Assembly (NCBI GenBank): GCA_030704615.1
Contig: CM060732.1
Location: 18,166,001-18,230,000, forward strand
From: Takakia lepidozioides
Taxonomy: Eukaryota; Plantae; Bryophyta
DNA length: 64,000 nucleotides
Direction: 5' to 3'
Part shown: positions 1 through 60,329 of the stretch, piece by piece
Numbering within the stretch: the stretch's first letter is position 1
How the letters are laid out: the number at the start of each line of letters is the position of its first letter
Program-made: the position numbers and the translations under genes
Notes under the pieces: model-generated
What the model saw: only the letters and a program-made list of their open reading frames with translations
Database searches by the model: none
Told to the model about the DNA's origin: nothing

Positions 1-600
1 TGCCCAAAAACTAGGGAAGGGGCTGGGCTTTTGGCTCAGCCTCGACTTTTTCAAAGTTAGTAAACAGAGGTACATGCACAATTCCCTTGATAGATTTGAA
101 GAGAGCGTCTCTTTGGTGAGAGAACCCCGGACAGTGTATCAGAAAATGAGTACTGTCTTCAGATTGCCCACACAACGGGCAATTGCACTCTTCCTTTCCT
201 CTCTGCTTCTGTTTGTTGTTCAAAGGTAGGCTTCCTGCCCTGAGTTTAAATTTCAGTCTAGTGCCGAGAGTGGGTAGACCCTTGAGGTCATCGAAGATGT
301 CCTCCCCCATGTCACTGACTGGAAACAAGTTCAGGGAAGTTTTTTTGCCTAACTTCATTTTCATCAGACAATCTCATGGCAACAGACATGGTTGGACACT
401 ACAGTCTCTAAGTCAGATTTATCCAGCAGGGTGAAGACTTGTGGTTCCAGGTCCAGGTCCTTGAGAATCTCTTCTATTGTCTTCTACCAGGACTTAGCCT
501 GTTTGACAGGTCGGTGGGCGGTCCTGTCTCCAAGATATAGAGTCGATTAACTTAGGATATCTGGTGTTGGACATATGATGCAGCTGACCCCACCATCTGA
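1..600 (-). mobile_element. 3' fragment of non-LTR retrotransposon ORF2 (C-terminal zf-RVT-like zinc knuckle)
   Basis: ORF 11-364: RLKFKLRAGSLPLN...CNCPLCGQSEDSTHFLIHC matches the CxxC-x(n)-E-xx-H-xxx-C motif at LINE ORF2 C-termini. Confidence 0.75.
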
Positions 601-2725
601 CCTCCCCCCCCCCAACCAATTTTTTTTCTTTGTTGCCCCCTCTCTCCCTCTGTCTCCCTCTCTACTGGGAATTGGCAGTTTGCTATCAATGTGGATTTTT
701 TGTTCCTCTATCAAGCTTTTTCATCCATACCAGATGAGCCACCAGGATGGACACTGAATTACCTCTAGGATGGTTCTTTTGGCCTTTTCATTCCTCCTCT
801 ATTGACTCTCATCCATACCGGATGAGTCACCATGGAAGAAAAGAATTACCTCTATGGAGGTTGCCAACAACATCCTGTTTTTCCATCCGTACCGGATGAA
901 AAACTACCAGGGTGATAATTTTTCATTCCTCTTTTATTGACTCTTGTTATCCATACCAGATGGTCTGGAAAGGAATGATAGAATTACCTAGATGGAGGTA
1001 AGGCGTTGCCACAGATGATATTCCCTACTTTTTCATCCTGACACATGTAAGGTGTCTATGGGTGATGTGATTATGACCTGGAATTGATCTTTACTACCCC
1101 TAACTATGATTAATTACGGTGGAAATCCTAACCCCTACCCCAAAACCTATTTTTAACCTTGTTACGGATGAAATCCGTCAGGGTTTATGGACTCGTCCTA
1201 CTATTTTTCATCCGCGGATGAAAAATCGGGGGACAACCCTATGTTGTCTCCCCCGCTGTCAGAAGCACGCGATGTGCTTTTGAGCTCGTGAGGAGAATGT
1301 TATGGCGGGCATGGTTCGGTGGCTGCCCTGTTTGTGGTGTCGTACCCATGCTGGACGAGCGCCTGGGGGGGCGCGAAGGCGGCGCCTTGTCTCTCTTGCA
1401 GCGGGAAACACCGCTATGAAAGCAGTGGCATCTTCCCTCCTCTGGCTTTTTCTGTGCTTAGCATGGATGCTTATGATGGGAAGTTCTCTCCCTCTTTTCT
1501 AGTGCCTTGCGTTTGTGCCTGCTTTGCTTCATTGCTTATGTGGTTTGTGGAGGCGGCTTGCTGCGGGTGGTGATGGCGCATAACCCTCTTCCCCAATCGC
1601 TTAAGGTGCCTTTGGAGTTTAGGGATTCTCATTTTTTTATCTCTTTCTCTTGCTTTTGAGTTTCTTAGTTGACATCGATGACAAGTGTGAGGGTCTGTGA
1701 TTCACCTGGGGCTCCACAATCCTCACTAACTTGTTGGTTTTTGTAGGTGAGGATCCTCACCTACTTTGAAGTTTCTTGAGCATGCAGATTGGGATATGGG
1801 CTGAGGAGACCTAGGGTTGTGCGCGCTGTGAGGTGGCTGCTGGCTACAGCCCCGATTTCAACACAACTGCCTTTGACTTGATATGCTCCAGCCTGCGTTC
1901 TGGCCTTTGTCGTTTGTAAGTTATTTTGGCCAAAGAGGATCTGGTTTTTGGTGGTAAGTTTTTGGCGGTTTTGGGTAACTATGGATCTGATGGCCTTGAA
2001 GTTTAAGGCGGCAGCCTGGTAGGGTACTGCCCTGCTCCTTGTCAGGCCCACTTCTGATGTGTACTAGATCGTAGTAAGGTGTTTTTTGCATGTCTTAGCA
2101 TGGAACTCTTGAAGGATGAGGATGGTAAGCTGCAATGGAATCCTACCTACTGTTTTGGATCTGTCATCACATCATGCCTATGACCTGCCATCTGTTTTTT
2201 ATACAAAAGAGGCTGGATCTCGGCTGTTCATGCTGTTTGTTGGTACAAATCTTGAACCTGCAATCTGACAGGCTGCATTCACATTCCCTTGATACCTTGT
2301 ATGATCACATGTCTCCGGGTGAATACAAATGATATGGAATCTACTTCATCTGGATCAAGTTGGACTGCTTGGTGGGATACTGAGATTCTGACAAAATGCA
2401 GGCTGGTCCTTATGCCTTGGCTGATGCATGACATGCCATAATTCATGGCTGAATTGGTAAGCTGCTGGTATATGTACAGGCTGAACCAAGAGGCCTTGCA
2501 GCTTGCACAGGGACAGCAATATCTTATCTTGTCCCACACAAGAACAAACCCCGCCCTCCCACCCTGTTTTGTCTTGGATGATTGGGTGGTGTCTTTTGGG
2601 ATGATTTGACAAGACTGGAAATGTGAGATAGTGCCCTATCCAGGGCTGTTTATGTCTTTAATTGACAATGACCCTTATGGGTCTTGTCCATGGCTTGACA
2701 TGACGTGAATATCTTCCCTCTCTCT
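600..2725 (+). mobile_element. Non-coding unit family A, copy 1 (putative non-autonomous retroelement)
   Basis: Poly-C/CTTTGTTGCCCC(CT)n head, TTTTCATCC/GGATGAAAA-rich segment, structured tail ending ATATCTTCCCTCTCTC. Repeated at 2822, 14638 and 16855. Confidence 0.6.
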
Positions 2726-2821
2726 TATTAACTTTTTCTACCCCCTCTTTCCCTCTGTGTTTTTTTTTTTTTGTGAGCAACACGAAAGAGAGGAGAGAGA
2801 GAGAGAGAGAGAGAGTAGCAA

Positions 2822-4410
2822 CTGCTCAGTCACTCCCCCCCCCCCACCTTTTTGTTTTTTCTTTGTTGCCCCCTCTCTCCCTCTGTCTCCCTCTCTACTG
2901 GGAATTGGCAGTTTGCTATCAGTGTTGATTTTTTGTTTTCTCATCCTCTATCAGGCTTTTTCATCCATACCGGCTGAGCCACCAGGATGGACACTGAATT
3001 ACCTCTAGGATGGTTCTTTTGGCCTTTTCATTCCTCCTCTATTGACTCTTATCCATACCGGATGAGTCACCATGGAAGAAAAGAATTACCTCTATGGAGG
3101 TTGCCAACAACATCCTGTTTTTCCATCCGTACCGGATGAAAAACTACCAGGGTGATAATTTTTCATTCCTCTTTTATTGACTCTTTTTATCCATACCGGA
3201 TGGTCTGATAAGGAATGATAGAATTACCTAGATGGAGGTAAGGCGCTGCCACGGATGATATTCCCTACTTTTTCATCCTGACACAAATGATCTGTCTATG
3301 GATGATATGATTATGGCCTGGAATTGATCTTCACTACCCCTAATTATGATTAATTACGGTGGAAACCCTAACCCATACCCAAAACCTATTTTTAACCTTG
3401 TTGCGGATGAAATCCGTCAGGGTATATGGATTCGTCTTACTATTTTTCATCCATGGATGAATAATCGGGGGACAACCCTATGTCGTCTCTCCCGCTGTCA
3501 GAAGCACGCGATGTGCTTCTGAGCTCGCAAGGAGAGTGTTATGGCGGGCGTGCTTCGGTGGCTGCCCTGTTTGTGGTGTCGTACCCATGCTGGACGAGCG
3601 CCTGGGGGGCGCAAAGGCGGCGCCTTGTCTCTCTTGCAGCGGGAAACACCGCTATGAAAGCAGTGGCATCTTCCCTCCTCTGGTTTTTTCTGTGCTTAGC
3701 AAGGATGCTTATGATGGGAAGTTTTTCCCTCTTTTCTAGTGCCTTGCGATTGTGCCTGCTTTGCTTCATTGCTTATGTGCTTTGTGGAGGCGGCTTGCTG
3801 CGGGTGGTGATGGCGCATAACCCTCTTCCCCAATCGCTTAAGGTGCCTTTGGAGTTTAGGGATTCTCATGTTCATATCTCTTTCTCTGGCTTTTGAATTT
3901 CTTAGTTGACATCGATGACAAGTGTAAGGGTCTGTGATTCACCTGGGGCTCCACAATCCTCACTAACCTGTTGGTTTTTGTGGGGGCTTGTGATGGGACC
4001 AGGTGAGGACCCTCACCTACTTTGAAGTTTCTTGAGCATGCAGATTGGGATATGAGCTAAGGAGACCTAGGGTTGTGCGCGCTGTGAGGTGGCTGCTGGC
4101 TGCAGCCCCGATTTCAACACAACTGCCCTTGACTTGATATGCTCCAGCCTGCGTTCTGGCCTTTGTCATTTTGCCGCCGATGCGCAGCTCGGCCTGACGG
4201 GCTTGTTTCCTGAGGCTTGCATACAAACCATACCCTACCTTTTAATCTTTGACAGCAAAGCCTGAGGATTACTAAGCTAGGTTGTAAGTTATTTTGGCCA
4301 AAGAGGATCTGGTTTTTGGTGGTATATTTTTGGCGGTTTTTGGGTAACTATGGATCTGATGGCCTTGAAGTTTAAGGCGGCAGCCTGGTAGGGTACTACC
4401 CTGCTCCTTG
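2822..4410 (+). mobile_element. Non-coding unit family A, copy 2 (3'-truncated variant)
   Basis: Starts CTGCTCAGTCACTCCCCCC and aligns with 600-2043. At 4410 it switches to a LINE 3'-end sequence. Confidence 0.6.
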
Positions 4411-4520
4411 TGAAGGTAAGTCTTACTATCAACGTCAACCCCTGACAGAGGCAGGTTCTGTCCCTTTTGTTTTCGCTCAAACAGGGCGCGAGGTCAATAG
4501 CCACAAGGCTACGGCAAACA
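4410..4520 (+). mobile_element. Short LINE 3'-end fragment, opposite orientation to the LINE pieces at 11425 and 13896
   Basis: GTGAAGGTAAGTCTTACTATCAACGTCAACCCCTGACAGAGG is the near reverse complement of the sequence at ~11453-11494 and ~13923-13964. Confidence 0.6.
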
Positions 4521-4602
4521 ACGTCTTACGAGTACAATCTTTTAACTTTTTCTGCACCCTCTCTCCTTTGTGGTTTGTTTACTTTTGTGAACAGCAAAAA
4601 AA

Positions 4603-6420
4603 AGAGGGAAGATATACATGTCATGTCAAGACATGGACAAGACCGCTAAGGTCATTGTCATTGAAAGACAAAACAGCCCTTTACAGGGCACCATCTAACA
4701 TTCCCTTTCATGTTTACAATCTCATTTGAATACCCCATTACATTTCAGGGTCTCTGAAAAAACAGGGCGGGAGGGTGGGATTCCAGGTCATTCATATCAT
4801 GAAAGCACCATAGTATGCATCATCATCTCAAAAATTCATTTCAAACTCATTTCAAAAACCAGATTGCAGGTTTGGTTTGAAGATGATGTTTTAGAACCAA
4901 GATATAAGCAAGATTCTTAAAAAGGAAGAAGAAACAAAAGGGTAGAGCCCCCTTAAGCAGGTATAGGCCTGGAATGGTATTTTAAGGCCTCATAAAATAG
5001 TTCTGCCAAGGTGAAAGAGCAGCTCAGAAACCCCTGTTTGTTATCAAGCCATGAAACCAAAATGATATGAGGGCCTTGAAGAATGTGTGTTATCTGTCAA
5101 AGCCTATCCTTTTGATCCATCAGAGTCATACCAAGAAGTCTCATTTCAGAGCCAGGTATCAAAGCAGTCAGAGTAATAACTGCTATTTTGTATCCTTGTA
5201 TCCTTCATAGCTTAACTCCTACACATGCAAATGTGGTTGTAAAAAACCATAAACAGGGGTAAGGAGAGAAGCAGATCCTCATTGGAGCCATCTTGAAGCA
5301 GGTCTGAAGCGGCATGGTGGCAGTTTGAAACATCAGATGGCATCAGCAGCATAGGCAGCAGCAGAATCCACATTTGCAAGAACAGGAGCTGCAAGCTTTC
5401 AAGAAATCAAGACAAGTGAAGACCCTCACCTGTGCCCGTCCCAAAAACCACCACATAACGATGTGTGTTAGTGAGGATGCAGCAGGTAAATGGCAGGTCT
5501 TCACAGTTGCTATCCATACATGTCAGTGTTGAATTCTAAAGCAAGTACAGATCACAATTCAAGCAAGGGTAAACTCAAAAAACCTTGAGTGTTTGTGGTA
5601 TGCCCTGCGCCATGGCGTCCAACAGATCATCTCCAACAGAACGCAATCAGAGTAGAAGCGTTCATAGATAGAGAATGGCTCATACACAAAGAGAGAGCAA
5701 CATGTAATCTGTAGATAAATAGGGATAGAGTACTTCCCAACAAGGAGTAAAAGCGCCGCTGCAAAATAAAGAACCATGAGTTTCTGATCAAAGCGATCAC
5801 CGCTTTGTCGTCTGCCAGAGAAGAATCTGTTTAACCACCAATGCGCATCCCAAGAGCCAGCCATCACGAGTACCATGTAGCAGTAGGGAGCAGGTTTATA
5901 CGGCGCATCATCAAGGTTCACTGAAGCACGAGTTCAGTGCTGTGAAGTGTGTCGGCCTGCTTAGGGCACAACTTCCCGATTCCTCGGGTTCCCTATGCGT
6001 TCTTTAACGCGCATCGGAGATTCTTTTTCTGCGTCTTCCAATAACTCTTTTTCATCCAGGGTGGATGAAAAATCACATTTTACCAAGAGAGGCACTTTGT
6101 CAATGGATGACATCCCATAGAAATGTATCTTTTAGGGTTATGGTATAGGCTTAGGTTTAATAACTGCCATCATTTATGATGGTAGTTTTATTATTCTCTT
6201 GGATTTTAAAATAGGTAACCATTATTTATGTAGATCATCCAGTTTAGATGAGAAATAGATGGTAAATCCAGCTTTCTGTACATTAAGTTTCATCACCCTA
6301 TAATAAAATCATCCAGATTTGGATGAAAAAGGCTGGGATGAAAAACTAAATAACCTCAAAAGGTTAAGGCCAGATGAAACCAAAGAGTTATAGAGGGAGA
6401 GGGAGAGAGGGAGAGAGAGG
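4603..6420 (-). mobile_element. Non-coding unit family B (3' tail / pseudo-LTR of the adjacent Penelope-like element)
   Basis: Near-identical to 12010-13760, 18628-20361 and 24967-26700. Tail is homologous to the family A tail in the opposite orientation. Confidence 0.65.
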
Positions 6421-9400
6421 GACCCACCAGCCAATCCCCTGGCATGGCAAAACCTTACGGAGTGAGTGTGGTATGCACTCACCCCGTAAGGGAGTGCATA
6501 CCAGACCTCTTCTCATAAGGTTTTCCCTCTTCCATGTAGTTCTATCCTCAGATTATACTATCCAAAGGAGTAGAATCCTACATCCTCACTTCCTCGGATC
6601 AAGAATGAAACGTTGGCATAAAATGTATCAGAGCAGAACTAGTATAGTATCACTAGAAAAGAACGGAGAGTTCAATGGTATAACTTAGCTCTGTATAAGT
6701 TTTTAGAAAGTACCTTTCAGTTTCTCAATAAGCTCTTGTACAGGGAAGAGCAGGCCAGGGAATGAACCACGTTCAAGGAATTTTGTCAAGATACGAGCAA
6801 GTTTTTGGTCTTGAAACCATTCATCCCAAGAGTGTTAATCAGAATGCTACACTCCTTCTCAGCCAAATCAGCATTGCTGGAAATGTATATAATAGGCACA
6901 ACTTGTGAAATCACAATGTTATAAGATTGATTCACAGGCCTATTGGATAAGAACTGGATATATTGAGTGTAAGAGAAAGGGAGTAGTCTTCTCTTGTCAT
7001 ATTTCTGGAAATGGAACTCACCTGTGTCACTGTTTGAGACTGTAATCTGGATATTCATGAAACAAGCTTCCAACCCCACGTATTGGGAATCGGTTTTAGT
7101 GCGTAGTAGCTCAGGTTTGATCTCCACTACATTGAGTGGGTAGATCCACCAAGGGTTGTTGCTGCTTCTGTCTGCCCATGGGTCCAGGAATAGCATTGCA
7201 TCACCCACATTCAGCCAGCATATATCATCAATGTATCTGAAGGCAGATTTAAACATAGGCATAAGCTGGAATTGTCCTAAAGCTGCAAGCCTTAAGATGA
7301 ATTTGATTTCATAAGAAAGGAAGTACATGTTGCACCATAATGGTGAGCATGAAAAAACCATAGGTATTCCAGAAATCTGCTGCCACACACGGTCCCCTAA
7401 GGCAACAAAACAGTGTGACATAAGCCATTTGTGGAGCATAAGTAGCTTGACTTCAGAAAGTTCAATCTAGGTACCTGATTTTGGGGAAGACGTGCCCCAT
7501 CTACTTTTTCCGAAAGTACCGTTTTTGGCTGGAATCCATAGAGTATGACGTGCTCGGGGGTGAGACCGATGGTGTTGCTGGAATGCAATCTTCACCACGT
7601 ATTCAATGGCGTCCCCTAAGTTATCCTGTCCTGTCAAAGGTATGTTCTCATAGCATTGTGTAATGTCAGCAACAAGATGTTATGGACTTTTTCAGGCAGG
7701 TTTAGTGTAAAGTCAGTGATGGAGTCAATAATCCAATACATAGCAGTAGATACTTTAAAATTGCTCATAAGTATCCAGCCTTGTCTTGGCCCATTCTTTT
7801 ACCAATGGTAGAAGATCCATGGTAGCCCTTGTAAGAAGGCTAGCTAGTTCACTGAAAACACATTTATGGGCATTGGTAATCCATCTGTATTTTTCTTATG
7901 TAGCTTGTAGATTCCCATAATGTAAGGTAGTCTATAGGAGGGAGCAGGTATCTCCGGAATCAGACTCTGTATTTCCACGGAAATGTTTCCTAGAACAAGG
8001 TCAGGTGGCAGCCATACCTCAGCTTGCTTGCATGGTGTAAAGTCGTTACCCATCAATCTGTGGAAGGCTTGAGTTCTTATGTGCTTTACACACATAAAAC
8101 ATACGTTGTTGTTAGCCTTGTCAAGACCAGAAAAATACAGGTGATTGAGAAGCCATGAAAGTTCATCTTTTGCCTCTTTTACAGTAAGAGGATTGCGCTC
8201 ATGGTGAGTGAAGTCGTACCTTCCTCTGCCGGCTTTTTGTTTCAATCTATCCCAGCATGTGTTTTTTACCCATTGGCAGCAGGTTGCGGCCCAAGATTCA
8301 CATGGGTCTACATGTAAAATTTCACAGGTTCTATGGAAAGCCAAAGACACTTGTTCAACAACGTCTTTCAACAAAGTACGTTTGAGAGGGATGTGATTCA
8401 TACCTAGGCTGAATAGTTCTTTCAGCCTTGCGTGTCTAATAATATTCAGGTCCATGGTACGTACGTGTTGCGTAGGTGTAGAACCAGATAGATGGAATTC
8501 TGTTTTTGTATCCACATCCCGAAAATCATGAAACCTCTTGGCACTGTCACATAGACAATCTGGTGAGTGAATCAGGTCTTGCATAAAGCAAAAATCACGG
8601 AAAACAGCAGCAGGCTGATAGTATTCAGAGCTGCTTTGTTTATGATATGTCCATCCAAAACTATCTCATCGATGAGAATAGCCAAGTCATTTTGTCCAAA
8701 TTCCAAAAAAGCTTCTTTTATCAAGTTCCTAGGGTTTATCCACTCCATACCACGGTTTGGGTACAACATATGAATGAGTCCCAAGGGAGCAGATTTTGCT
8801 GCCTGTTTTATGAATTTCCTGCCATGGGCATGAGTTTCAATTTGTCTGCAACCATCCTCAAGACCAAACAACGCATCTGCACATACAAAGTAGAGGAACA
8901 TACCAAAAATGAGATTTTTAAAGATCTGTCCATGATCCAAAATCTCGTTTGCGTATTGGGGAGAACTCGTCAGTGATACGACGAGTCTTGTATGACTCCT
9001 GGCTGGCGATGTTGATGGTGGTACTGGAATTAGCACCCGAACCCCCAAGTGATGACCGATTCGTTGCTCTTGAATTCTCAGAGGTGTTGGTAGTAGAGTA
9101 TTGTCCCCTGCCAGAGCGTCCTCCTCTTTGGTAGGGACCTCTTCCACGACCAGGGGTGCCTCTGCCTCGAGTGGCATTGTTCTTGCCTTGTTGAGGAGGC
9201 GTCTGCCCCTCCATACGCTGCCGTTTGTAGCTATTGAATTGTGGCCTGGGAAGGTTGTCTGAAAAAAAACCCAGGTTTCACAAGTTTCTCAATGTATCTG
9301 GCCCCCTTGGATTCTCCTAACTTCCAAGCAACTTGGCTTGGGGGTCAATTGAGAATTCACAAGCTGCTTCCATTATGAAGCCCCGGGTCATCTGGAAGGT

Positions 9401-10635
9401 AATTTGTGCAAGTACAGCAGATCTGGCAGCCCGCATGATCCACACCAGAAAGCTGTAATACTTGGTTTGCACCGAAGGATAGGCATCATCAGGGAAGAAC
9501 ACAATCAGATTGTTCAGCATATACCATACCATATGGTCAAACCAAGCAACACTCCCAATGCAAGAAGAGGGTGCCCCTCCTTGTCCACAGTTACATCTTA
9601 TGTAGGGACGATGCCAGTTGAAGAGTTGACTCTTGTGATTTTTGGGAGCCGAACCAGTCGGCAAGTCATTTTTGGTCCTCAAGGTAAGGTTCTCACCTTT
9701 GTCACAGAGCTTGTAGTAGAAGGTCCTTAGTGGCCATGCCACAACAATAGGTTCCTTTTTTATTCTCTGAAAACCCTCCTTAGCATCTGTGCACATCTAC
9801 TGCGTTAGCAGGGTTATGTTGCCCCATTTGACCCACATTTCAATAGAAATGGGTGCCAATAAATTGATATTAGCATGTGGGTGCCACATCATGTGGTCGT
9901 TATTGGCAACCTCTAATTCAACTGCACGGGGAGGCAACCAAGGGACAAACTGCAGATTTCCAGGAGTGGCACCTGCTGCCCTTTCTTGTTCCACTTGTGA
10001 GATTTCTACTTGTTCACAGAATTCTCTCACTGCCTTTTTCTTCATCCGGTAAAATCATGTGCCAAGGATTGGGTGATTACTTACAGAAGGGATGAAGTCT
10101 TTTTCAGATGTTTGTAGATTTCTGCGTGGAGACAGTCTGGTCATCTTCTGGGTTCGCCATTCTAAGAGCTGCCTCAATGGCTGATCCCTTCTTTTCCCAT
10201 TGTATCAGCTCCTCGGCATCATCTTCCAGTACCTCAATCATTTTAGTATTGAATTCCTGGAGCTTCTCCAGGTACCTGCCATTCTTATTTGCCATGATGC
10301 CAAGTGCAACCCAATTTTCCAAAGCCAAGTTTCAAGTAATAACACGGGGTTTTCATCACCTGAATTTTCCACGGCCTCAGTATCCATCTTTGCAATGCAG
10401 CATGGAAGTACTTGGTGTGACTTGTGCGAGGGTTGCTTGCACAGCAGGAATTGGAGGAGGTAGTGGGGACTGATACCCCGGGGCTATGAGGTCCTCATTC
10501 CAGCTAGGACCTCCTTTGGTGACTTTCTGTCAAAGCCCCCCGAGAACATTTGTCAATATATCAAAATGAGAAGGTGAAAATGAGAAGGGTAAGGGTAGAT
10601 GGTGTGTACAAAAACCACTAAGTACACTGATCAAA
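6421..10635 (-). mobile_element. Penelope-like retroelement (Naiad/Chlamys-type RT), copy 1, frameshifted
   Basis: Motifs CLC...HVRTMDLNIIRHARLKELFSLG, GLDKANNNVCFMC, QQISGIPM.FSCSP, FRYIDD and the thumb YDKR...SN.P...Y...SQ, all characteristic of PLE RTs. Confidence 0.85.
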
Positions 10636-10639
10636 TAAA

Positions 10640-11372
10640 GAGAGGGAAGATATACATGTCATGTCAAGACATGGACAAGACCGCTAAGGTCATTGTCATT
10701 GAAAGACAAAACAGCCCTTTACAGGGCACCATCTAACATTCCCTTTTTACAATCTCATTTGAATACCCCATTACATTTCAGGGTCTCTGAAAAAATAGGG
10801 CGGGAGGGTGGGATTCCAGGTCATTCATATCATGAAAGCACCATAGTATGCATCATCATCTCAAAAATTCATTTCAAACTCATTTCAAAAACCAGATTGC
10901 AGGTTTGGTTTGAAGATGATGTTTTAGAACCAAGATATAAGCAAGATTCTTAAAAAGGAAGAAGAAACAGCAGGGTAGAGCCCCCTTAAGTAGGTATAAG
11001 CATGGAATGGTGCTGTGAAAGGTGTCGACCTGCTTAGGGCACAGATCCCCGATTTCTCATCCAGGGGGGATGAAAAGTCGCATTCTAGCAGGAGATGCAC
11101 TTGTCAATGGATGACATCCATCAAAAAGATAACTTTTAGGGTTAGGGTATAGGCTCAAGTTTAATAACTGCCATCATTTATAATAAATGATGGTAAAATT
11201 ACTCTCTCCAGGATTATAATAGGTCACCATCATTCATGGAATTCATCCGTTTGGATGAAAAAGGGAGAAAACAAATGATAAACCAAGATTTATGCACAGT
11301 AAGGGTCATCATCCTAATAATTTCATCCAGATTTGGATGAGAAAGGAGATTAGGATGAAAAACCAAAAATCC
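10640..11372 (-). mobile_element. Short B-related unit (B 3' end joined to a diverged GGATGAAA-rich segment), directly upstream of PLE copy 1
   Basis: 10640-11010 matches 4603-4978. 11010-11370 is a diverged version of 5935-6350. Confidence 0.6.
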
Positions 11373-11373
11373 G

Positions 11374-11965
11374 CTGCTCAGTCACTCCCCCCCCACATTC
11401 TTGTTTTTCTTTGTTGCCCCCTCTCTTGGGGAAACAAAAGGGACAGATCCTACCTCTGTCAGGGGCTGACGTTGGTAGTAAGACTTACCTTCACATATAG
11501 AATTAATCCGGATTTTAGATATCCTCTACAAATCCCTTCACACAAGCATCAATCTGTTGTGTGTGAGTTGCCCAAAAAACTAGGCCTCAGAAGGGGCTGG
11601 GCTTTGGCTCAGCCTCGACTTTTTCAAAGTTAGTAAACAGAGAGGTACATGCACAATTCCCTTGATAGATTTGAAGAGAGCATCTCTTTGGTGAGAGAAC
11701 CTCGGACAGTGTATCAGAAAATGAATAATGTCTTCAGGTTGCCCACCATACATGGTTGGACACTACAGCCTCTAAGTCAGATTATCCAGCAGGGTGAAGA
11801 CTTGCGGTTCCAGGTCCAGGTCCTTGAGAATCTCTTCTACTGTCTTTACCAGGACTTAGCTGTTTGACAGGTCGGTGGGCGGTCCTGTTTCCAAGATATA
11901 GAGTCGATTAACTTAAGATATCTGGCGTTGGACATATATTGCAGCTGAACCCACCATCTGACCTT
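11374..11965 (-). mobile_element. Unit head motif (plus orientation) followed by an internally deleted copy of the LINE 3' fragment
   Basis: CTGCTCAGTCACTCCCC head, then sequence matching 13896-14637 with the ~170-385 equivalent deleted near 11747. Confidence 0.65.
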
Positions 11966-12009
11966 GAATTTATCTCGTCGGGAGCTTAAAAGAGAGCAGC
12001 ACAGAAGAG

Positions 12010-13836
12010 AGCGAAGATATACATGTCATGTCAAGACATGGACAAGACCGCTGAGGTCATTGTCATTGAAAGACAAAACAGCCCTTTACAGGGCACCATC
12101 TAACATTCCCTTTCATGTTTACAATCTCATTTGAATACCCCATATCATTTCAGGGTCTCTGAAAAAACAGGGCGGGAGGGTGGGATCCCAGGTCATTCAT
12201 ATCATGAAAAAACCATAGTATGCATCATCATCTCAAAAATTCATTTCAAACTCATTTCAAAACCAGATTGTAGGTTTGGTTTGAGAGTGATGTTTTAGAA
12301 CCAAGATATAAGCAAGATTCTTAAAAAGGAAGAAGAAGAAACAGCAGGGTAGAGCCCCCTAAGTAGGTATAGGCATGGAATGGTATTTAAGGCCTCATAA
12401 AAATAGTTCTGCCAAGGTGAAAGAGCAGCTCAGAAACCCCTGTTTGTTATCAAGCCATGAAACCAAAATGATATGAGGGCCTTGAAGAATGTGTGTATCT
12501 GTCAAAGCCTATCCTTTTGATCCATCAGAGTCATACCAAGAAGTTTCATTTCAGAGCCAGGTATCAAAGCAGTCAGAGTAATAACTGCTATTTTGTATCC
12601 TTGTACCCTTCATAGCTTAACTCCTACACATGCAAATGTGGTTGTAAAAAACCAGAAACAGGGGTTAAGGAGAGAAGCAGATCCTCATTGGAGCCATCTT
12701 GAAGCAGGTCTGAAGCGGCATGGTGGCAGTTTGAAACATCAGATGGCATCAGCAGCATAGGCAGCAGCAGAATCCACATTTGCAAAAACAGGAGCTGCAA
12801 GCTTTCAAGAAATCAAGACAAGTGAAGACCCTCACCTGTGCCCGTCCCAAAAACACCACATAGCGATGGTGTTAGTGAGGATGCAGCAGGTAAATGGCAG
12901 GTCTTCACAGTGCTATCCATACATGTCAGTGTTGAATTCTAAGCAAGTACAGATCACAATTCAAGCAAGGGTAAACTCAAAAAAACCTTGAGTGTTTGTG
13001 GTATGCCCTGCGCCATGGCGTCCAACAGATCGTCTCCAACAGAACGCAATCAGAGTAGAAGCGTTCACAGATAGAGAATGGCTCATACACAAAGAGAGAG
13101 CAATAACATGTAATCTGTAGATAAATAGGGATAGAGTACTTCCCAACAAGGAGTAAAGCGTCGCTGCAAAATAAAGAACCATGAGTTTCTGATCAAAGCG
13201 ATCACCGCTTTGTCGTCTGCCAGAGAAGAATCTGTTTAACCACCAATGCGCATCCCAAGAGCCAGCCATCACGAGTACCATGCAGCAGTAGGGGAGCAGG
13301 TTTATACGGCGCATCATCAAGGTTCACTGAAGCACGAGTTCAGTGCTGTGAAGTGTGTCGGCCTGCTTAGGGCAAAACTTCCCGATTTTTCATCCAGGGT
13401 GGATGAAAAATCACATTTTACCAAGAGGCACTTTTCAATGGATGACATCCCATAGAAATGTATCTTTTAGGGTTATGGTATAGGCTTAGGTTTAATAACT
13501 GCCATCATTTATGATGGTAGTTTTATTATTCTCTTGGATTTAAAAATAGGTAACCATTATTTATGTAGATCATCCAGTTTAGATGAAAGAAATAGATGGT
13601 AAATCCAGCTTTCTGTACATTAAGTTTCATCACCCTATAATAAAATCATCCAGATTGGATGAAAAAGGCTGGGATGAAAAACTAAATAACCTCAAAAGTT
13701 AAGGCCAGATGAAATCCAAAGATTTATAGATGGAGAGGGAGAGAGGGAGAGAGGGAGAGAGGGAGAGAGAGGGAGACATCAGGGGGCAACAAAGAAAAGA
13801 GAAGAAGGTGGGGGGGGGGGGGAGTGACTGAGCAGC
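12010..13836 (-). mobile_element. Complete solo family B unit
   Basis: Minus strand starts CTGCTCAGTCACTCCCCCC (~13835) and ends GACATGACATGTATATCTTC (~12013). Confidence 0.65.
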
Positions 13837-13895
13837 TGCTGCTGCTCAGTCACTCCCCCCCCCACATTCTCTGTTTTTCTTTGTTGCCCCCTCTC

Positions 13896-14637
13896 TTGGG
13901 GAAACAAAAGGGACAGATCCTACCTCTATCAGGGGCTGACGTTGGTAGTAAGACTTACCTTCACATATAGAATTAATCCGGGTTTTCCAGATATCCTCTA
14001 CAAATCCCTTCACACTAGCATCAATCTGCTGTGTGTGAGATGCCCAAAAACTAGGGAAGGGGCTGGGCTTTTGGCTCAGCCTCGACTTTTTCAAAGTTAG
14101 TAAACAGAGGTACTGCACAATTCCCTTGATAGATTTGAAGAGAGCGTCTCTTTTGAGAGAACCCCGGACAGTGTATCAGAAAATGAGTACTGTCTTCAGA
14201 TTGCCCACACAACGGGCAATTGCACTCTTCCTTTCCTCTCTGCTTCTGTTTGTTGTTCAAAGGTAGGCTTCCTGCCCTGAGTTTAAATTTCAGTCTAGTG
14301 CCGAGAGTGGGTAGACCCTTGAGGTCATCGAAGATGTCCTCCCCCATGTCACTGACTGGAAACAAGTTCAGGGAAGTTTTTTTGCCTAACTTCATTTTCA
14401 TCAGACAATCTCATGGCAACAGACATGGTTGGACACTACAGTCTCTAAGTCAGATTTATCCAGCAGGGTGAAGACTTGTGGTTCCAGGTCCAGGTCCTTG
14501 AGAAATCTTCTATTGTCTTCTACCAGGACTTAGCCTGTTTGACAGGTCGGTGGGCGGTCCTGTCTCCAAGATATAGAGTCGATTAACTTAGGATATCTGG
14601 TGTTGGACATATGATGCAGCTGACCCCACCATCTGAC
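13896..14637 (-). mobile_element. LINE ORF2 3' fragment (zf-RVT-like), duplicate of 1-600 plus its C-terminal extension
   Basis: ORF 14051-14401 is nearly identical to 11-364. Confidence 0.75.
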
Positions 14638-16755
14638 CTCCCCCCCCCCAACCAATTTTTTTTCTTTGTTGCCCCTCTCTCCCTCTGTCTCCCTCTCTAC
14701 TGGGAATTGGCAGTTTGCTATCAATGTGGATTTTTTGTTCCTCTATCAAGCTTTTTCATCCATACCAGATGAGCCACCAGGATGGACACTGAATTACCTC
14801 TAGGATGGTTCTTTTGGCCTTTTCATTCCTCCTCTATTGACTCTCATCCATACCGGATGAGTCACCATGGAAGAAAAGAATTACCTCTATGGAGGTTGCC
14901 AACAACATCCTGTTTTTCCATCCGTACCGGATGAAAAACTACCAGGGTGATAATTTTCATTCCTCTTTTATTGACTCTTGTTATCCATACCAGATGGTCT
15001 GGAAAGGAATGATAGAATTACCTAGATGGAGGTAAGGCGTTGCCACAGATGATATTCCCTACTTTTTCATCCTGACACATGTAAGGTGTCTATGGGTGTG
15101 ATTATGACCTGGAATTGATCTTTACTACCCCTAACTATGATTAATTACGGTGGAAATCCTAACCCCTACCCCAAAACCTATTTTTAACCTTGTTACGGAT
15201 GAAATCCGTCAGGGTTTATGGACTCGTCCTACTATTTTTCATCCGCGGATGAAAAATCGGGGGACAACCCTATGTTGTCTCCCCCGCTGTCAGAAGCACG
15301 CGATGTGCTTTTGAGCTCGTGAGGAGAATGTTATGGCGGGCATGGTTCGGTGGCTGCCCTGTTTGTGGTGTCGTACCCATGCTGGACGAGCGCCTGGGGG
15401 GGCGCGAAGGCGGCGCCTTGTCTCTCTTGCAGCGGGAAACACCGCTATGAAAGCAGTGGCATCTTCCCTCCTCTGGCTTTTTCTGTGCTTAGCATGGATG
15501 CTTATGATGGGAAGTTCTCTCCCTCTTTTCTAGTGCCTTGCGTTTGTGCCTGCTTTGCTTCATTGCTTATGTGGTTTGTGGAGGCGGCTTGCTGCGGGGG
15601 TGGTGATGGCGCATAACCCTCTTCCCCAATCGCTTAAGGTGCCTTTGGAGTTTAGGGATTCTCATTTTTTATCTCTTTCTCTTGCTTTTGAGTTTCTTAG
15701 TTGACATCGATGACAAGTGTGAGGGTCTGTGATTCACCTGGGGCTCCACAATCCTCACTAACTTGTTGGTTTTTGTAGGTGAGGATCCTCACCTACTTTG
15801 AAGTTTCTTGAGCATGCAGATTGGGATATGGGCTGAGGAGACCTAGGGTTGTGCGCGCTGTGAGGTGGCTGCTGGCTACAGCCCCGATTTCAACACAACT
15901 GCCTTTGACTTGATATGCTCCAGCCTGCGTTCTGGCCTTTGTCGTTTGTAAGTTATTTTGGCCAAAGAGGATCTGGTTTTTGGTGGTAAGTTTTTGGCGG
16001 TTTTGGGTAACTATGGATCTGATGGCCTTGAAGTTTAAGGCGGCAGCCTGGTAGGGTACTGCCCTGCTCCTTGTCAGGCCCACTTCTGATGTGTACTAGA
16101 TCGTAGTAAGGTGTTTTTGCATGTCTTAGCATGGAACTCTTGAAGGATGAGGATGGTAAGCTGCAATGGAATCCTACCTACTGTTTTGGATCTGTCATCA
16201 CATCATGCCTATGACCTGCCATCTGTTTTTTATACAAAAGAGGCTGGATCTCGGCTGTTCATGCTGTTTGTTGGTACAAATCTTGAACCTGCAATCTGAC
16301 AGGCTTTCACATTCCCTTGATACCTTGTATGATCACATGTCTCCGGGTGAATACAAATGATATGGAATCTACTTCATCTGGATCAAGTTGGACTGCTTGG
16401 TGGGATACTGAGATTCTGACAAAATGCAGGCTGGTCCTTATGCCTTGGCTGATGATGCATGACATGCCATAATTCATGGCTGAATTGGTAAGCTGCTGGT
16501 ATATGTACAGGCTGAACCAAGAGGCCTTGCAGCTTGCACAGGGACAGCAATATCTTATCTTGTCCCACACAAGAACAAACCCCGCCCTCCCACCCTGTTT
16601 GTCTTGGATGATTGGGTGGTGTCTTTTGGGATGATTTGACAAGACTGGAAATGTGAGATAGTGCCCTATCCAGGGCTGTTTATGTCTTTAATTGACAATG
16701 ACCCTTATGGGTCTTGTCCATGGCTTGACATGACGTGAATATCTTCCCTCTCTCT
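14638..16755 (+). mobile_element. Family A unit, duplicate of 600-2725
   Basis: Near identity to copy 1. Confidence 0.6.
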
Positions 16756-16815
16756 TATTAACTTTTTCTACCCCCTCTTTCCCTCTGTGTTTTTTTTTTT
16801 TTTTGTGAGCAACAC

Positions 16816-16851
<36 letters not shown>

Positions 16852-16854
16852 CAA

Positions 16855-18440
16855 CTGCTCAGTCACTCCCCCCCCCCCACCTTTTTGTTTTTTCTTTGTT
16901 GCCCCCTCTCTCCCTCTGTCTCCCTCTCTACTGGGAATTGGCAGTTTGCTATCAGTGTTGATTTTTTGTTTTCTCATCCTCTATCAGGCTTTTTCATCCA
17001 TACCGGCTGAGCCACCAGGATGGACACTGAATTACCTCTAGGATGGTTCTTTTGGCCTTTTCATTCCTCCTCTATTGACTCTTATCCATACCGGATGAGT
17101 CACCATGGAAGAAAAGAATTACCTCTATGGAGGTTGCCAACAACATCCTGTTTTCCATCCGTACCGGATGAAAAACTACCAGGGTGATAATTTTTCATTC
17201 TCTTTTATTGACTCTTTTTATCCATACCGGATGGTCTGATAAGGAATGATAGAATTACCTAGATGGAGGTAAGGCGCTGCCACGGATGATATTCCCTACT
17301 TTTTCATCCTGACACAAATGATCTGTCTATGGATGATATGATTATGGCCTGGAATTGATCTTCACTACCCCTAATTATGATTAATTACGGTGGAAACCCT
17401 AACCCATACCCCAAAACCTATTTTTAACCTTGTTGCGGATGAAATCCGTCAGGGTATATGGATCGTCTTACTATTTTTCATCCATGGATGAATAATCGGG
17501 GGACAACCCTATGTCGTCTCTCCGCTGTCAGAAGCACGCGATGTGCTTCTGAGCTCGCAAGGAGAGTGTTATGGCGGGCGTGCTTCGGTGGCTGCCCTGT
17601 TTGTGGTGTCGTACCCATGCTGGACGAGCGCCTGGGGGGGCGCAAAGGCGGCGCCTTGTCTCTCTTGCAGCGGGAAACACCGCTATGAAAGCAGTGGCAT
17701 CTTCCCTCCTCTGGTTTTTTCTGTGCTTAGCAAGGATGCTTATGATGGGAAAGTTTTTCCCTCTTTTCTAGTGCCTTGCGATTGTGCCTGCTTTGCTTCA
17801 TTGCTTATGTGCTTTGTGGAGGCGGCTTGCTGCGGGTGGTGATGGCGCATAACCCTCTTCCCCAATCGCTTAAGGTGCCTTTGGAGTTTAGGGATTCTCA
17901 TGTTCATATCTCTTTCTCTGGCTTTTGAATTTCTTAGTTGACATCGATGACAAGTGTAAGGGTCTGTGATTCACCTGGGGCTCCACAATCCTCACTAACC
18001 TGTTGTTTTTGTGGGGGCTTGTGATGGACCAGGTGAGGACCCTCACCTACTTTGAAGTTTCTTGAGCATGCAGATTGGGATATGAGCTAAGGAGACCTAG
18101 GGTTGTGCGCGCTGTGAGGTGGCTGCTGGCTGCAGCCCCGATTTCAACACAACTGCCCTTGACTTGATATGCTCCAGCCTGCGTTCTGGCCTTTGTCATT
18201 TTGCCGCCGATGCGCAGCTCGGCCTGACGGGCTTGTTTCCTGAGGCTTGCATACAAACCATACCCTACCTTTTAATCTTTGACAGCAAAGCCTGAGGATT
18301 ACTAAGCTAGGTTGTAAGTTATTTTGGCCAAAGAGGATCTGGTTTTTGGTGGTATATTTTTGGCGGTTTTGGGTAACTATGGATCTGATGGCCTTGAAGT
18401 TTAAGGCGGCAGCCTGGTAGGGTACTACCCTGCTCCTTGT
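16855..18440 (+). mobile_element. Family A unit, duplicate of 2822-4410
   Basis: Near identity to copy 2. Confidence 0.6.
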
Positions 18441-18627
18441 GAAGGTAAGTCTTACTCAACGTCAACCCCTGACAGAGGCAGGTTCTGTCCCTTTTGTTTT
18501 CGCTCAAACAGGGCGCGAGGTCAATAGCCACAAGGCTACGGCAAACAACGTCTTACGAGTACAATCTTTTAACTTTTTCTGCACCCTCTCTCCTTTGTGG
18601 TTTGTTTACTTTTGAACAGCAAAAAAA

Positions 18628-20361
18628 GAGGGAAGATATACATGTCATGTCAAGACATGGACAAGACCGCTAAGGTCATTGTCATTGAAAGACAAAACAG
18701 CCCTTTACAGGGCACCATCTAACATTCCTTTCATGTTTACAATCTCATTTGAATACCCCATTACATTTCAGGGTCTCTGAAAAAACAGGGCGGGAGGGTG
18801 GGATTCCAGGTCATTCATATCATGAAAGCACCATAGTGCATCATCATCTCAAAAATTCATTTCAAACTCATTTCAAAAACCAGATTGCAGGTTTGGTTTG
18901 AAGATGATGTTTAGAACCAAGATATAAGCAAGATTCTTAAAAAGGAAGAAGAAACAAAAGGGTAGAGCCCCTTAAGCAGGTATAGGCCTAGAATGGTATT
19001 TTAAGGCCTCATAAAATAGTTCTGCCAAGGTGAAAGAGCAGCTCAGAAACCCCTGTTTGTTATCAAGCCATGAAACCAAAATGATATGAGGGCCTTGAAG
19101 AATGTGTGTTATCTATCAAAGCCTATCCTTTTGATCCATCAGAGTCATACCAAGAGTTCTCATTTCAGAGCCAAGTATCAAAGCAGTCAGAGTAATAACT
19201 GCTATTTTGTATCCTTGTATCCTTCATAGCTAACTCCTACACATGCAAATGTGGTTGTAAAAAACCATAAACAGGGGTAAGGAGAGAAGCAGATCCTCAT
19301 TGGAGCCATCTTGGAGCAGGTCTGAAGCGGCATGGTGGCAGTTTGAAACATCAGATGGCATCAGCAGCTTAGGCAGCAGCAGAATCCACATTTGCAAGAA
19401 CAGGACTGCAAGCTTCAAGAAATCAAGACAAGTGAAGACCCTCACCTGTGCCCGTCCCAAAAACCACCACATAGCGATGTGTGTGTGTTAGTGAGGATGC
19501 AGCAGGTAATGGCAGGTCTTCACAGTTGCTATCCATGTCAGTGTTGAATTCTAAAGCAAGTACAGATCACAATTCAAGCAAGGGTAAACTCAAAAAACCT
19601 TGAGTGTTTGTGGTATGCCCTGCGCCATGGCGTCCAACAGATGTCTCCAACAGAACGCAATCAGAGTAGAAGCGTTCACAGATAGAGAATGGCTCATACA
19701 CAAAGAGAGAGCAACAAGTAATCTGTAGATAAATAGGGATAGAGTACTTCCCAACAAGGAGTAAAAGCGCCGCTGCAAAATAAAGAACCATGAGTTTCTG
19801 ATCAAAGCGATCACCGCTTTGTCGTCTGCCAGAGAAGAATCTGTTTAACCACCAATGCGCATCCCAAGAGCCAGCCATCACGAGTACCATGTAGCAGCAG
19901 GGGAGCAGGTTTATACGGCGCATCATCAAGGTTCACTGAAGCACGAGTTCAGTGCTGTGAAGTGTGTCGGCCTGCTTAGGGCAAAAATTTTTCATCCAGG
20001 GTGGATGAAAAATCACATTTTACCAAGAGAGGCATTTGTCAATGGATGACATCCCATAGAAATGTATCTTTTAGGGTTATGGTATAGGCTTAGGTTTAAT
20101 AACTGCCATCATTTATGATGGTAGTTTTATTATTCTCTTGGATTTTATAATAGGTAACCATTATTTATGTAGATCATCCAGTTTAGATGAAGAAATAGAT
20201 GGTAAATCCAGCTTTCTGTACATTAAGTTTCATCACCCTATAATAAAATCATCCAGATTTGGATGAAAAAGGCTGGGATGAAAAACTAAATAACCTCAAA
20301 AGGTTAAGGCCAGATGAAATCCAAAGAGTTATAGAGGGAGAGGGAGAGAGGGAGAGAGAGG
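18628..20361 (-). mobile_element. Family B unit / 3' tail of PLE copy 2
   Basis: Near identity to 4603-6420. Confidence 0.65.
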
Positions 20362-23300
20362 GACCCACCAGCCAATCCCCTGGCATGGCAGAACCTTACG
20401 GAGTGAGTGTGGTATGCACTCACCCCGTAAGGGAGTGCATACCAGACCTCTTCTCATAAGGTTTTCCCTCTTCCATGTAGTTCTATCCTCAGATATATTA
20501 TCCAAAGGAGTAGAATCCTACATCCTCACTTCCTCGGATCAAGAATGAAACGATGGCATAAAATGTATCATAGCAAACTAGTATAGTATCACTAGAAAAG
20601 AACGGAGAGTTCAATGGTATAACTTAGCTCTGTATAGTTTTTAGAAAGTACCTTTCAGTTTCTCAATAAGCTCTTGTACAGGGAAGAGCAGGCCAGGGAA
20701 TGAACCACGTTCAAGGAATTTTGTCAAGATACGAGCAAGTTTCTGGTCTTGAAACCATTCCTCCCAAGAGTGTTAATCAGAATGCTACACTCCTTCCCAG
20801 CCAAATCAGCATTGCTGGAAATGTATAGAATAGGCACAGCTTGTGAAATCACAATGTTATAAGATTGATTCACAGGCCTATTGGATAAGAACTGGATATA
20901 TTGAGTGTAAGAGAAAGGGTAGTCTTCTCTTGTCATATTTCTGGAAATGGAACTCACCTGTGTCACTGTTTGAGACTGTAATCTGGATATTCATGAAACA
21001 AGCTTCCAACCCCACGTATTGGGAATCGGTTTTAGTGCGTAGTAGCTCAGGTTTGATCTCCACTACATTGAGTGGGTAGATCCACCAAGGGTTGTTGCTG
21101 CTTCTGTCTGCCCATGGGTCCAGGAATAGCATTGCATCACCCACATTCAGCCAGCATATATCATCAATGTATCTGAAGGCAGATTTAAACATAGGCATAA
21201 GCTGGAATTGTCCTAAAGCTGCAAGCCTTAAGATGAATTTGATTTCATAAGAAAAAGAAGTACATGTTGCACCATAATGGTGAGCATGAAAAACCCATAG
21301 GTATTCCAGAAATCTGCTGCCACACACGGTCCCCTAAGGCGACAAAACAGTGTGACATAAGCCATTTGTGGAGCATAAGTAGCTTGACTTCAGAAAGTTC
21401 AATCCAGGTACCTGATTTTGGGGAAGACGTGCCCCATCTACTTTTTCCGAAAGTACCGTTTTTGGCTGGAATCCATAGAGTATGACGTGCTCGGGGGTGA
21501 GACCGATGGTGTTGCTGGAATGCAATCTTCACCACGTATTCAATGGCGTCCCCTAAGTTATCCTGTCCTGTCAAAGGTATGTTCTCATAGCATTGTGTAA
21601 TGTCAGCAACAAAGATGTTATGGACTTTTTCAGGCAGGTTTAGTGTAAAGTCAGTGATGGAGTCAATAATCCAATACATAGCAGTAGATACTTTGAAAAA
21701 TTGCTCATAAGTATCCAGCCTTGTCTTGGCCCATTCTTTTACCAATGGTAGAAGATCCATGGTAGCCCTTGTAAGAAGGCTAGCTAGTTCACTGAAAACA
21801 CATTTATGGGCATTGGTAATCCATCTGTATTTTTTCTTATGTAGCTTGTAGATTCCCATAATGTAAGGTAGTCTATAGGAGGGAGCAGGTATCTCCGGAA
21901 TCAGACTCTGTATTTCCACGGAAATGTTTCCTAGAACAAGGTCAGGTGGCAGCCATACCTCAGCTTGCTTGCATGGTGTAAAGTCTTTACCCATCAATCT
22001 GTGGAAGGCTTGAGTTCTTATGTGCTTTACACACATAAAACATACGTTGTTGTTAGCCTTGTCAAGACCAGAAAAATACAGGTGATTGAGAAGCCATGAA
22101 AGTTCATCTTTTGCCTCTTTTACAGTAAGAGGATTGCGCTCATGGTGAGTGAAGTCGTACCTTCCTCTGCCGGCTTTTTGTTTCAATCTATCCCAGCATG
22201 TGTTTTTTACCCATTGGCTGCAGGTTGGCCCAAGATTCACATGGGTCTACATGTAAAATTTCACAGGTTCTATGGAAAGCCAAAGACACTTGTTCAACAA
22301 CGTCTTTCAGCAAAGTACGTTTGAGAGGGATGTGATTCATACCTAGGCTGAATAGTTCTTTCAGCCTTGCGTGTCTAATAATATTCAGGTCCATGGTACG
22401 TACGTGTTGCGTAGGTGTAGAACCAGATAGATGGAATTCTGTTTTTGTATCCACATCCCGAAAATCATGAAACCTCTTGGCACTGTCACATAGACAATCT
22501 GGTGAGTGAATCAGGTCTTGCATAAAGCAAAAATCACGGAAAACAGCAGCAGGCTGATAGTATTCAGAGCTGCTTTTTTATGATATGTCCATCCAAAAAC
22601 TATCTCATCGATGAGAATAGCCAAGTCATTTTGTCCAAATTCCAAAAAAGCTTCTTTTATCAAGTTCCTAGGGTTTATCCACTCCATACCACGGTTTGGG
22701 TACAACATATGAATGAATCCCAAGGGAGCAGGTTTTGCTGCCTGTTTTATGAATTTCCTGCCATGGGCATGAGTTTCAATTTGTCTGCAACCATCCTCAA
22801 GACCAAACAACGCATCTGCACATACAAAGTAGAGGAACATACCAAAAATGAGATTTTTAAAGATCTGTCCATGATCCAAAATCTCGTTTGCGTATTGGGG
22901 AGAACTCGTCAGTGATACGACGAGTCTTGTATGACTCCTGGCTGGCGATGTTGATGGTGGTACTGGAATTAGCACCCGAACCCCCAAGTGATGACCGATT
23001 CGTTGCTCTTGAATTCTCAGAGGTGTGGTAGAGTATTGCCCCTGCCAGAGCGTCCTCCTCTTTGGTAGAGACCTCTTCCACGACCAGGGGTGCCTCTGCC
23101 TCGAGTGGCATTGTTCTTGCCTTGTTGAGGAGGCGTCTGCCCCTCCATACGCTGCCGTTTGTAGCTATTGAATTGTGGCCTGGGAAGGCTGTCTGAAAAA
23201 ACCCAGGTTTCACAAGTTTCTCAATGTATCTGGCCCCCTTGGATTCTCCTAACTTCCCAAGCAACTTGGCTTGGGGGTCAATTGAGAATTCACAAGCTGC

Positions 23301-45542: not shown

Positions 45543-45576
45543 CCTCGCCTTGAGCTCTTGAAAAGCTCGTTCCTGC

Positions 45577-60253: not shown

Positions 60254-60329
60254 CTAAAACTAAAAATAAAAATAAATTAATAACTCCATTCCGAGTAGCA
60301 GACACGGTAGGGTAAGTTTGAATGCCAAA

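Follow-up and report, generated by a model that had tools for sequence, protein, structure and literature searches.

Within the Chlamys group of Penelope-like elements (PLEs), a third type named PLE-X was described in 2021 by Craig et al. (PMC8557442, cited here and throughout from excerpts of the paper) from Chara and two Selaginella species, with matches in mosses. These elements are defined there by a reverse transcriptase (RT) with a CxC motif, by their lack of a GIY-YIG endonuclease and by an N-terminal extension that carries a CxCX1-8C motif and is likely separated by an intron. How they insert without a known endonuclease is left open in that description, and no follow-up to it was found in the literature searched, including excerpts of bioRxiv 10.64898/2026.07.22.740005. 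Here we analysed a window of 64,000 nucleotides (nt) from the bryophyte Takakia lepidozioides (GenBank assembly GCA_030704615.1, contig CM060732.1, positions 18,166,001 to 18,230,000), the first part of which holds an element that, judged by its sequence, is a member of this endonuclease-less PLE-X subgroup (Table 1, positions counted from the first letter of the window). The reading we prefer, with a confidence only a little above even, is that of a damaged PLE-X copy whose upstream open reading frame (ORF1) probably lies within an intron of the gene for the RT, and whose kind probably inserts by priming on nicks or ends already present in (CT)n/(AG)n microsatellites and not by its own cutting. 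Directly supported are the family membership, the two frames, the lack of a GIY-YIG motif, the hairpins and (CT)n tract after the RT and the presence of family sequence on both sides.

The minus-strand RT carries the landmarks of the Naiad/Chlamys type, i.e. the CxC linker, DKA and YIDD, together with motifs A and B. The span from motif A to motif B, considered for the insertion in the fingers that marks this type, is 100 codons. Together with the empty motif and Pfam scans given below, these landmarks bear out the preliminary description of this stretch, which had been made from the letters alone and proposed a plant element with an RT of Naiad/Chlamys type and no GIY-YIG. That description also took the element for an endonuclease-less or endonuclease-replaced plant lineage; an endonuclease-less lineage of this kind had been published in 2021 as PLE-X. 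Among proteins of 582–2000 amino acids (aa), 78 RT homologues were found with 43–50% identity, all of them 583–790 aa long. In a quick RT tree, which contained no endonuclease-bearing (EN+) reference and no outgroup, the window RT appears among 21 land-plant-type relatives and the long-branched L009, apart from two Chara RTs (L-labels denote the 37 fetched relative loci, P-numbers homologous database proteins). It is 31% identical to P0187 of Chara over 308 aa, and the fragment upstream of it matches P0194 of Chara braunii (30% over 103 aa, E 4.7e-5 in 1.84 billion). By eye, the upstream-region matches of Chara braunii resemble PLE-X1_cBra, and the window ORF1 shares NxLAPI, RPYxxCxC and WFDH with the published PLE-X N-termini, as far as these were available. 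The window copy itself is damaged and contributes little on its own: its RT exon has suffered five frameshifts and one stop, and the RT profile falls into seven pieces over three frames.

According to the excerpts, the published PLE-X1/X2_cBra, PLE-X1_sMoe and PLE-X1_sTam agree with the window element in the Chlamys-type RT, CxC, DK(A), the lack of GIY-YIG, the upstream CxCX1-8C motif, an acceptor before the RT exon, an apparently non-telomeric location and, in Chara, a link to microsatellites. In contrast to them, the window element has no detectable hammerhead, carries (CT)n instead of (CA)n, does not lie in ribosomal DNA (rDNA) and has an upstream region that we read not as an extension but as a separate ORF1 with a fourth conserved cysteine and a predicted early donor. 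Moreover, a conserved RNA module is present in its flank, of which no mention was found in the available part of the PLE-X description. What we contribute is that the element can be read as two ORFs, that a fourth cysteine is conserved, that a splice is predicted and that the range reaches liverworts; some of this may already be shown in the rest of the 2021 supplement and its figures.

The search for an endonuclease remained negative. A strict GIY..YIG pattern had no match in the six frames of window positions 1–27000, and a looser one had none in the 78 RT homologues and a single one among 134 ORF1 homologues, which is spurious and located inside the helical N-terminal stretch. In Pfam, 11 fragments of the window and the 92 ORF1 sequences of the alignment were without a GIY-YIG family, and neither motif scans nor Pfam revealed the N-terminal GIY-YIG motif with the R, H, E and N residues of EN+ Chlamys/Naiad. 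Also no other nuclease family was found for ORF1 in Pfam, NCBIfam or PHROGs, the top nuclease row being LAGLIDADG_2 in one of the 92 sequences at E 0.083. GIY..YIG-like strings in five rows of the 37 loci (L011–L013, L021, L032) were rejected, as they lie in AT-rich, stop-laden frames and are absent from the L025 counterpart. The same applies to a hidden endonuclease exon in the adjoining unit U, for which a comparison with seven other spacers gave no stop-free conserved translation. Beyond the predicted donor at the RT C-terminus, the space up to the microsatellite amounts to fewer than 100 codons and could not accommodate a nuclease. At the level of motifs and Pfam, the upstream region, in which a nuclease fold would have spoken against the preliminary description, thus holds no detected nuclease motif. 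That description had also considered the endonuclease to be possibly replaced by another one; no such replacement came to light, and the upstream region is a separate ORF1. Compared with EN+ Chlamys/Naiad elements, as far as described in the excerpts, the RT type, the CxC linker, the partial-tandem/inverted arrangement, ORF-less head-to-tail derivatives and the microsatellite bias are alike, whereas the N-terminal GIY-YIG is missing and an unrelated ORF1 is found upstream.

Roughly 550 codons without GIY-YIG had been assigned to a long N-terminal region of the RT protein. About 536 codons are indeed there and free of this motif, but they constitute an ORF1 with its own stop and not an N-terminal part. 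Two separate ORFs occur in the intact relatives L001, L002, L004, L005 and L006, where ORF1 stays open over as many as some 590 codons from stop to stop and closes before the RT exon. A stop before the RT was likewise seen by eye in the published consensus DNAs of sMoe, sTam and X2_cBra, as far as available. With the upstream fragment as query 134 proteins were matched, and none of the 70 with E up to 1e-10 exceeds 562 aa. None of 199 long candidate proteins was homologous to the ORF1 fragment, and 16 stretches of viral contigs contained no relative. A profile match to ORF1 lies upstream of the RT in 16 of the 37 loci, many of the others being short or 5'-truncated. The homologues include proteins of the liverworts Riccia and Calypogeia, to which the range of the PLE-X ORF1 thereby extends, and a quick 28-sequence tree places the window ORF1 as sister to a group with liverwort rows (support 94, not starred).

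From these homologues a common layout can be derived: a proline-rich leader is followed by a helical part, then by four cysteines and WFDH, and the protein closes with a tail rich in RG whose end reads SP..R..W(D). The four cysteines are conserved to 94–99% in 88–91 occupied rows of 92. The CNC...C noticed in the preliminary description is found as CNC-x8-C at 9595–9560 and corresponds to the published CxCX1-8C; since the latter sits within the four-cysteine site, it equals three of the four cysteines. In the window, the tail contains 16 R, 16 G and 6 RG in 118 residues. Invariant from Chara-like to land-plant sequences are R194, E197, N214, N298, R301, D324 and H325 (L004 numbering), H325 being replaced by Q in 12 of 90 rows. 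AlphaFold models of the L004 ORF1 (pLDDT 87, pTM 0.83) and of the window ORF1 domain (pLDDT 94, pTM 0.89) are both confident and consist largely of helices, to which three or four short strands are added. Fold searches with them gave no clear match, a result that neither proves a new fold nor rules out that of a nuclease such as GIY-YIG. For the full model, Foldseek gave nothing at E 0.001 against PDB and viral structures, and the top VIA hits (Z 4.7, root-mean-square deviation 3.9, 71 aligned) are generic helical bundles dominated by residues 3–99. The window domain model had no Foldseek hit and no clear fold match in VIA (top Z 3.5, deviation 2.9, 70 aligned). Sequence searches of PDB with ORF1 were empty or noise, and ESM Atlas gave nothing usable for the window fragment.

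A weak likeness to GRF-type zinc ribbons was seen in 5 of the 92 ORF1 sequences (PF23549, best E 0.005–0.007, 16–17 bits against a cut-off of 27), and no PF06839 row was among the profile results. The zf-GRF of APE2, NEIL3 and Top3 (PMC9369019, excerpts) resembles ORF1 in its GRxY-x-x-C on a strand, followed by C..W-x-D, and in its four cysteines, and in the window domain model GRxY and WxD both fall on strands; in APE2 this domain binds single-stranded DNA (PMC5861430, excerpts). ORF1 differs from it by scores below the Pfam cut-off, by another cysteine spacing and by being embedded in a larger helical domain. On the whole, ORF1 is predicted to bind nucleic acid rather than to cut DNA.

How the RT is expressed from such a two-ORF element is suggested by conserved splice signals. 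RT homology starts directly after a phase-1 CAG in six of six loci and in both window copies. This acceptor lies 41 nt past the ORF1 stop in the window and 33–41 nt past it across the window, L001 and L002, therefore a donor would be expected inside ORF1 or further upstream. The candidate is a glycine near codon 52, the only one of four invariant Gly columns that is encoded A/GGT throughout. Furthermore, P0012 is the sole RT protein among the 78 that starts with the ORF1 leader (first 44 residues, iE 1.5e-6), and it switches to the RT at the column of this donor glycine. An early donor, by which the leader is spliced to the RT and most of ORF1 is removed, appears quite probable from these signals. 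Two contig runs guessed to be RNA had no bridge from 10359 to 8877, a stretch that they leave partly uncovered and on which they are uninformative.

At the 3' side, the unspliced RT stop (6705–6703) lies 282 nt before position 6421, in line with the earlier estimate of about 300 nt between the RT end and a 3' junction. Position 6421 itself is no host junction, as a (CT)n tract and then 1.83 kb of family sequence, unit U, follow. The hairpins before this tract fold with a z of -5.7 in the window and of -3.3, -2.1, -1.7 and -1.0 in relatives. Compared with the relatives, U shows no conserved coding, and in several long loci related sequence flanks the ORFs on both sides in direct or inverted orientation. 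With terminal redundancies of 123 and 117 nt, respectively, the contigs of L001 and L004 indicate that these families occur as tandem units or circles. A single contig of run X1 follows the end of U about 30 nt into the body and then continues as (GA)n, as might be expected if a pLTR with its tail had landed in a microsatellite.

Within U, a stem-bulge-stem module is found that is common to U, its relative unit V and the spacers of L001, L002, L004, L007, L011 and L025. Five of its 15 pairs are changed on both sides and none of 500 shuffles reaches its covariation score, a control that relatedness may inflate; Rfam gave no match. Besides the copy in U, the module lies at 1660–1775 and 3900–4025 (+) of the window and at L001:6280–6400, L004:420–540 and L007:11620–11750, and the module often contains an ATG just before a possible donor. 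Hammerheads are reported for three of the four published PLE-X families, X2_cBra being listed without one (PMC8557442). In the window a hammerhead had to be rejected, since Rfam found none and a descriptor search yielded nothing beyond a string at 6551 that is core-like but whose stem II has just 2 bp. Targeting of rDNA was also rejected, there being no Rfam match in the window.

The first 26.8 kb of the window are built from two bodies, from U and V copies that lack ORFs and run in either orientation, and from 3' fragments of long interspersed nuclear elements (LINEs). The two bodies are one duplication of about 14 kb and not independent insertions: positions 1–5974 match 14041–19989 (98.8%) and 6048–10951 match 19988–24845 (97.6%), and a frameshift near 6816 is common to both. 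The chained array of the preliminary description, explained there by the extension of existing ends or breaks, is mostly made of ORF-less flank copies plus this duplication. Substitutions between the two bodies number 29 and gap columns 40 in 4421, and since many of them fall in homopolymers, part of the damage may be sequencing error. Partial-tandem and inverted arrangements are known for PLEs (PMC8557442). The LINE 3' fragments inside the array, with a CCHC zinc finger (zf-RVT, E 0.0034), are located at 1–603, 11569–11964 and 14051–14639. A short C/G-rich module at 13781–13892 precedes the (CT)n start of ORF-less units, with related sequence at 602–650, 2814–2896, 11373–11430 and 26676–26818; two copies head to head form a palindrome with spurious microRNA scores.

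For insertion, the following course may be proposed. Unspliced RNA would give ORF1, while spliced RNA would join about 50 leader codons to the RT. By analogy with ORF1/Gag-type helpers, ORF1 is predicted to be a binder of RNA and single-stranded DNA; with its helical part, predicted four-cysteine zinc site and RG-rich tail it would bind the RNA, packaging or chaperoning it, and may hold single-stranded target DNA. The (CU)n tract of the RNA could then pair with an exposed (AG)n 3' end, supplied by host repair or by the nuclease of another element, and the RT would prime there. As a (CT)n tract is part of every unit, new copies would tend to land on one another and chain. The idea that existing ends or breaks are extended is kept from the preliminary description as a best guess. 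Chara PLE-X1 prefers (CA)n (PMC8557442), and in its published DNA a G-rich end like the one here is, by eye, followed by an internal (CA)n tract. As a working analogy, priming at existing 3' ends can be taken from Athena and Coprina, which also lack an endonuclease and for which an optional upstream ORF1 and introns are drawn in the excerpts of PMC8557442; they differ by belonging to another RT clade and by telomeric repeats and hammerheads, neither of which was found in the window. With regard to the question left in 2021, the upstream region can now be narrowed down to a protein of its own that folds in the models, is intact in L001, L002, L004 and L005 and has named conserved residues, which together with the predicted splice makes binding, nicking and splicing each testable.

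Several points weigh against priming by a binding ORF1 nested in an intron. The splice draws on signals and on one protein, P0012, which could reflect a genomic deletion; when a second protein of this kind was sought among the 134 candidates, P0012 alone was returned. The five donor loci represent about three independent lineages, and in a three-sequence control the same codon pattern occurred in one of 15 invariant RT Gly columns. Automated gene models from Riccia and Chara (P0109, P0155, P0193, P0203) join ORF1 to the RT elsewhere, and in the window, L001 and L006 (three of seven sequences) in-frame ATGs stand shortly before the acceptor. The GRF likeness, besides being under the cut-off and differing in cysteine spacing, is confined to the more distant sequences and is a lead, not a membership. 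The conserved R, E, N, D and H of ORF1 could be catalytic, and the true 3' end may lie either in the (CT)n tract or at the opposite end of U. Finally, Selaginella PLE-X families insert at one exact 28S site (PMC8557442), which passive priming explains poorly.

Some of these points lead to other explanations. One concerns expression only: an intron close to where ORF1 ends might join the entire upstream region to the RT in one polyprotein, the arrangement drawn for PLE-X1_sTam; alternatively, the RT might be made by reinitiation after the ORF1 stop. The polyprotein is the published model, inferred from Selaginella gene models (PMC8557442), and the four gene models named above agree with it, as the ATGs before the acceptor do with reinitiation. 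However, no common phase-1 donor exists in the final 50 ORF1 codons of six sequences, ORF1 closes with the conserved SP..R..W(D) motif and a stop, no RT match among the 78 exceeds 790 aa, and the four gene models join the two parts at differing places. We regard this route as possible but doubtful. With respect to insertion, a GIY-YIG nuclease could be supplied in trans by an EN+ Chlamys or another element of the same genome. In the published tree PLE-X falls together with an EN+ family (PMC8557442) and LINE 3' fragments lie within the same array, yet the family has abundant intact members without any nuclease in cis, and help of this kind seems unlikely to us.

It is rather unlikely, too, that ORF1 itself is a nuclease or nickase of undescribed type in place of GIY-YIG. 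The seven residues kept from Chara-like to land-plant sequences, the presence of ORF1 upstream of the RT in those 16 loci and the need for a source of specificity in the 28S insertion of Selaginella (PMC8557442) would suit such a role, while the negative family searches, the Q at H325 and the combination of helical bundle, zinc site, RG tail and own ORF would rather suit a structural protein. The most far-reaching version, which we rate as quite unlikely, would make PLE-X a widespread class of retroelements of seed-free plants with a telomerase-like RT expressed by splicing around a nested ORF1, the latter being a zinc-dependent nickase or target-finder of undescribed type that replaces GIY-YIG and steers to microsatellites here and to 28S in Selaginella. 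Attachment to telomeres or chromosome ends as in Athena and Coprina, at which the preliminary description had hinted, would be in keeping with the absent endonuclease motif and with one degenerate C-rich tract in U and V. Yet this tract does not stand out from shuffles (18 and 19 of 28 against a shuffle maximum of 18) and is absent from seven related spacers, the window has neither tandem TTTAGGG nor a detectable hammerhead, the array adjoins ordinary Ty3 and LINE DNA, and the relatives lie inside contigs of 12–68 kb with ordinary flanks. Such attachment is therefore very improbable.

Table 1. Features of the PLE-X element and its array in the window
Feature	Position	Strand	Basis or remark
PLE-X coding body copy 1 (ORF1, RT exon, 3' hairpins), broken by indels	6421-10635	-	
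Body copy 2, within tandem duplication of ~14 kb	20362-24576	-	
ORF1, ~536 codons, frameshifted in copy 1; own stop 8920-8918	8918-10526	-	relatives' profile maps along span
ORF1 leader, ~55 codons, predicted to be spliced onto RT	10360-10526	-	leader profile matches 10502-10334
Predicted phase-1 donor, AG/GT at conserved Gly codon	10358-10359	-	A/GGT in 5/5 loci holding the region and both window copies
Four conserved cysteines (C ... WNxxRPYxxCxC-x7/8-C), then WFDH; predicted zinc site	9533-9706	-	conservation and model pLDDT 94
Low-complexity RG/S-rich ORF1 tail, conserved SP..R..W end	8918-9274	-	same tail in relatives
Predicted phase-1 acceptor (CAG) of RT exon	8877-8878	-	NCA G in 6/6 loci and both window copies
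RT exon, ~721 codons (linker, CxC, DKA, YIDD, thumb)	6714-8876	-	homologues and profile map
CxC linker motif DCLCD	8546-8560	-	aligns with CxC of homologues
DKA motif	8114-8122	-	landmark mapping
RT motif A	7670	-	
RT motif B	7370	-	
YIDD motif	7224-7235	-	
Predicted donor at RT C-terminus; unspliced stop 6705-6703	6712-6713	-	AG/GT in 4/5 matched loci and both copies; L003 without
Conserved hairpins ending GG(T/A)GGG right before microsatellite	6421-6502	-	aligned in 7/7 sequences
(CT)n-type tract, internal to repeat unit	6392-6421	-	also after hairpins in L001, L002, L004, L005, L006; short in L003
Unit U, 1.83 kb non-coding pLTR-like family sequence	4589-6420	-	no stop-free sense stretch above 124 codons
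Conserved stem-bulge-stem module in U	5410-5545	-	starts GACAT.GAT..CAA, ends AGGTGAGG
Internally deleted U copy upstream of ORF1	10634-11367	-	U end 96.6%, U start 76%
ORF-less U copy	11994-13753	-	others 18614-20361, 24575-24845, 24966-26695
Unit V, ORF-less U relative in opposite orientation	602-2730	+	others 2833-4411, 14638-16760, 16866-18440; U end 84% and module

Beyond the array, the window contains remains of other elements. Frame pieces rich in Cys and His at 37400–40130 (-) have no Pfam match and possibly belong to a DNA transposon; they are flanked by arrays of 75–95 nt inverted or tandem repeats at 36222–36437 and 40512–40964. Pieces of a Ty3-type long terminal repeat element extend over 43604–50800 (-), with a frame resembling a C5 DNA methylase upstream of its RT (47317–48000, PF00145, E 5.7e-10) and a PHD finger after the integrase (E 3.8e-10). 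A C-rich tandem array of 51 nt units occupies 51551–52520, and a broken LINE lies at 57449–60872 (+), recognizable by its RT (E 9e-13) and zf-RVT (E 5e-5).

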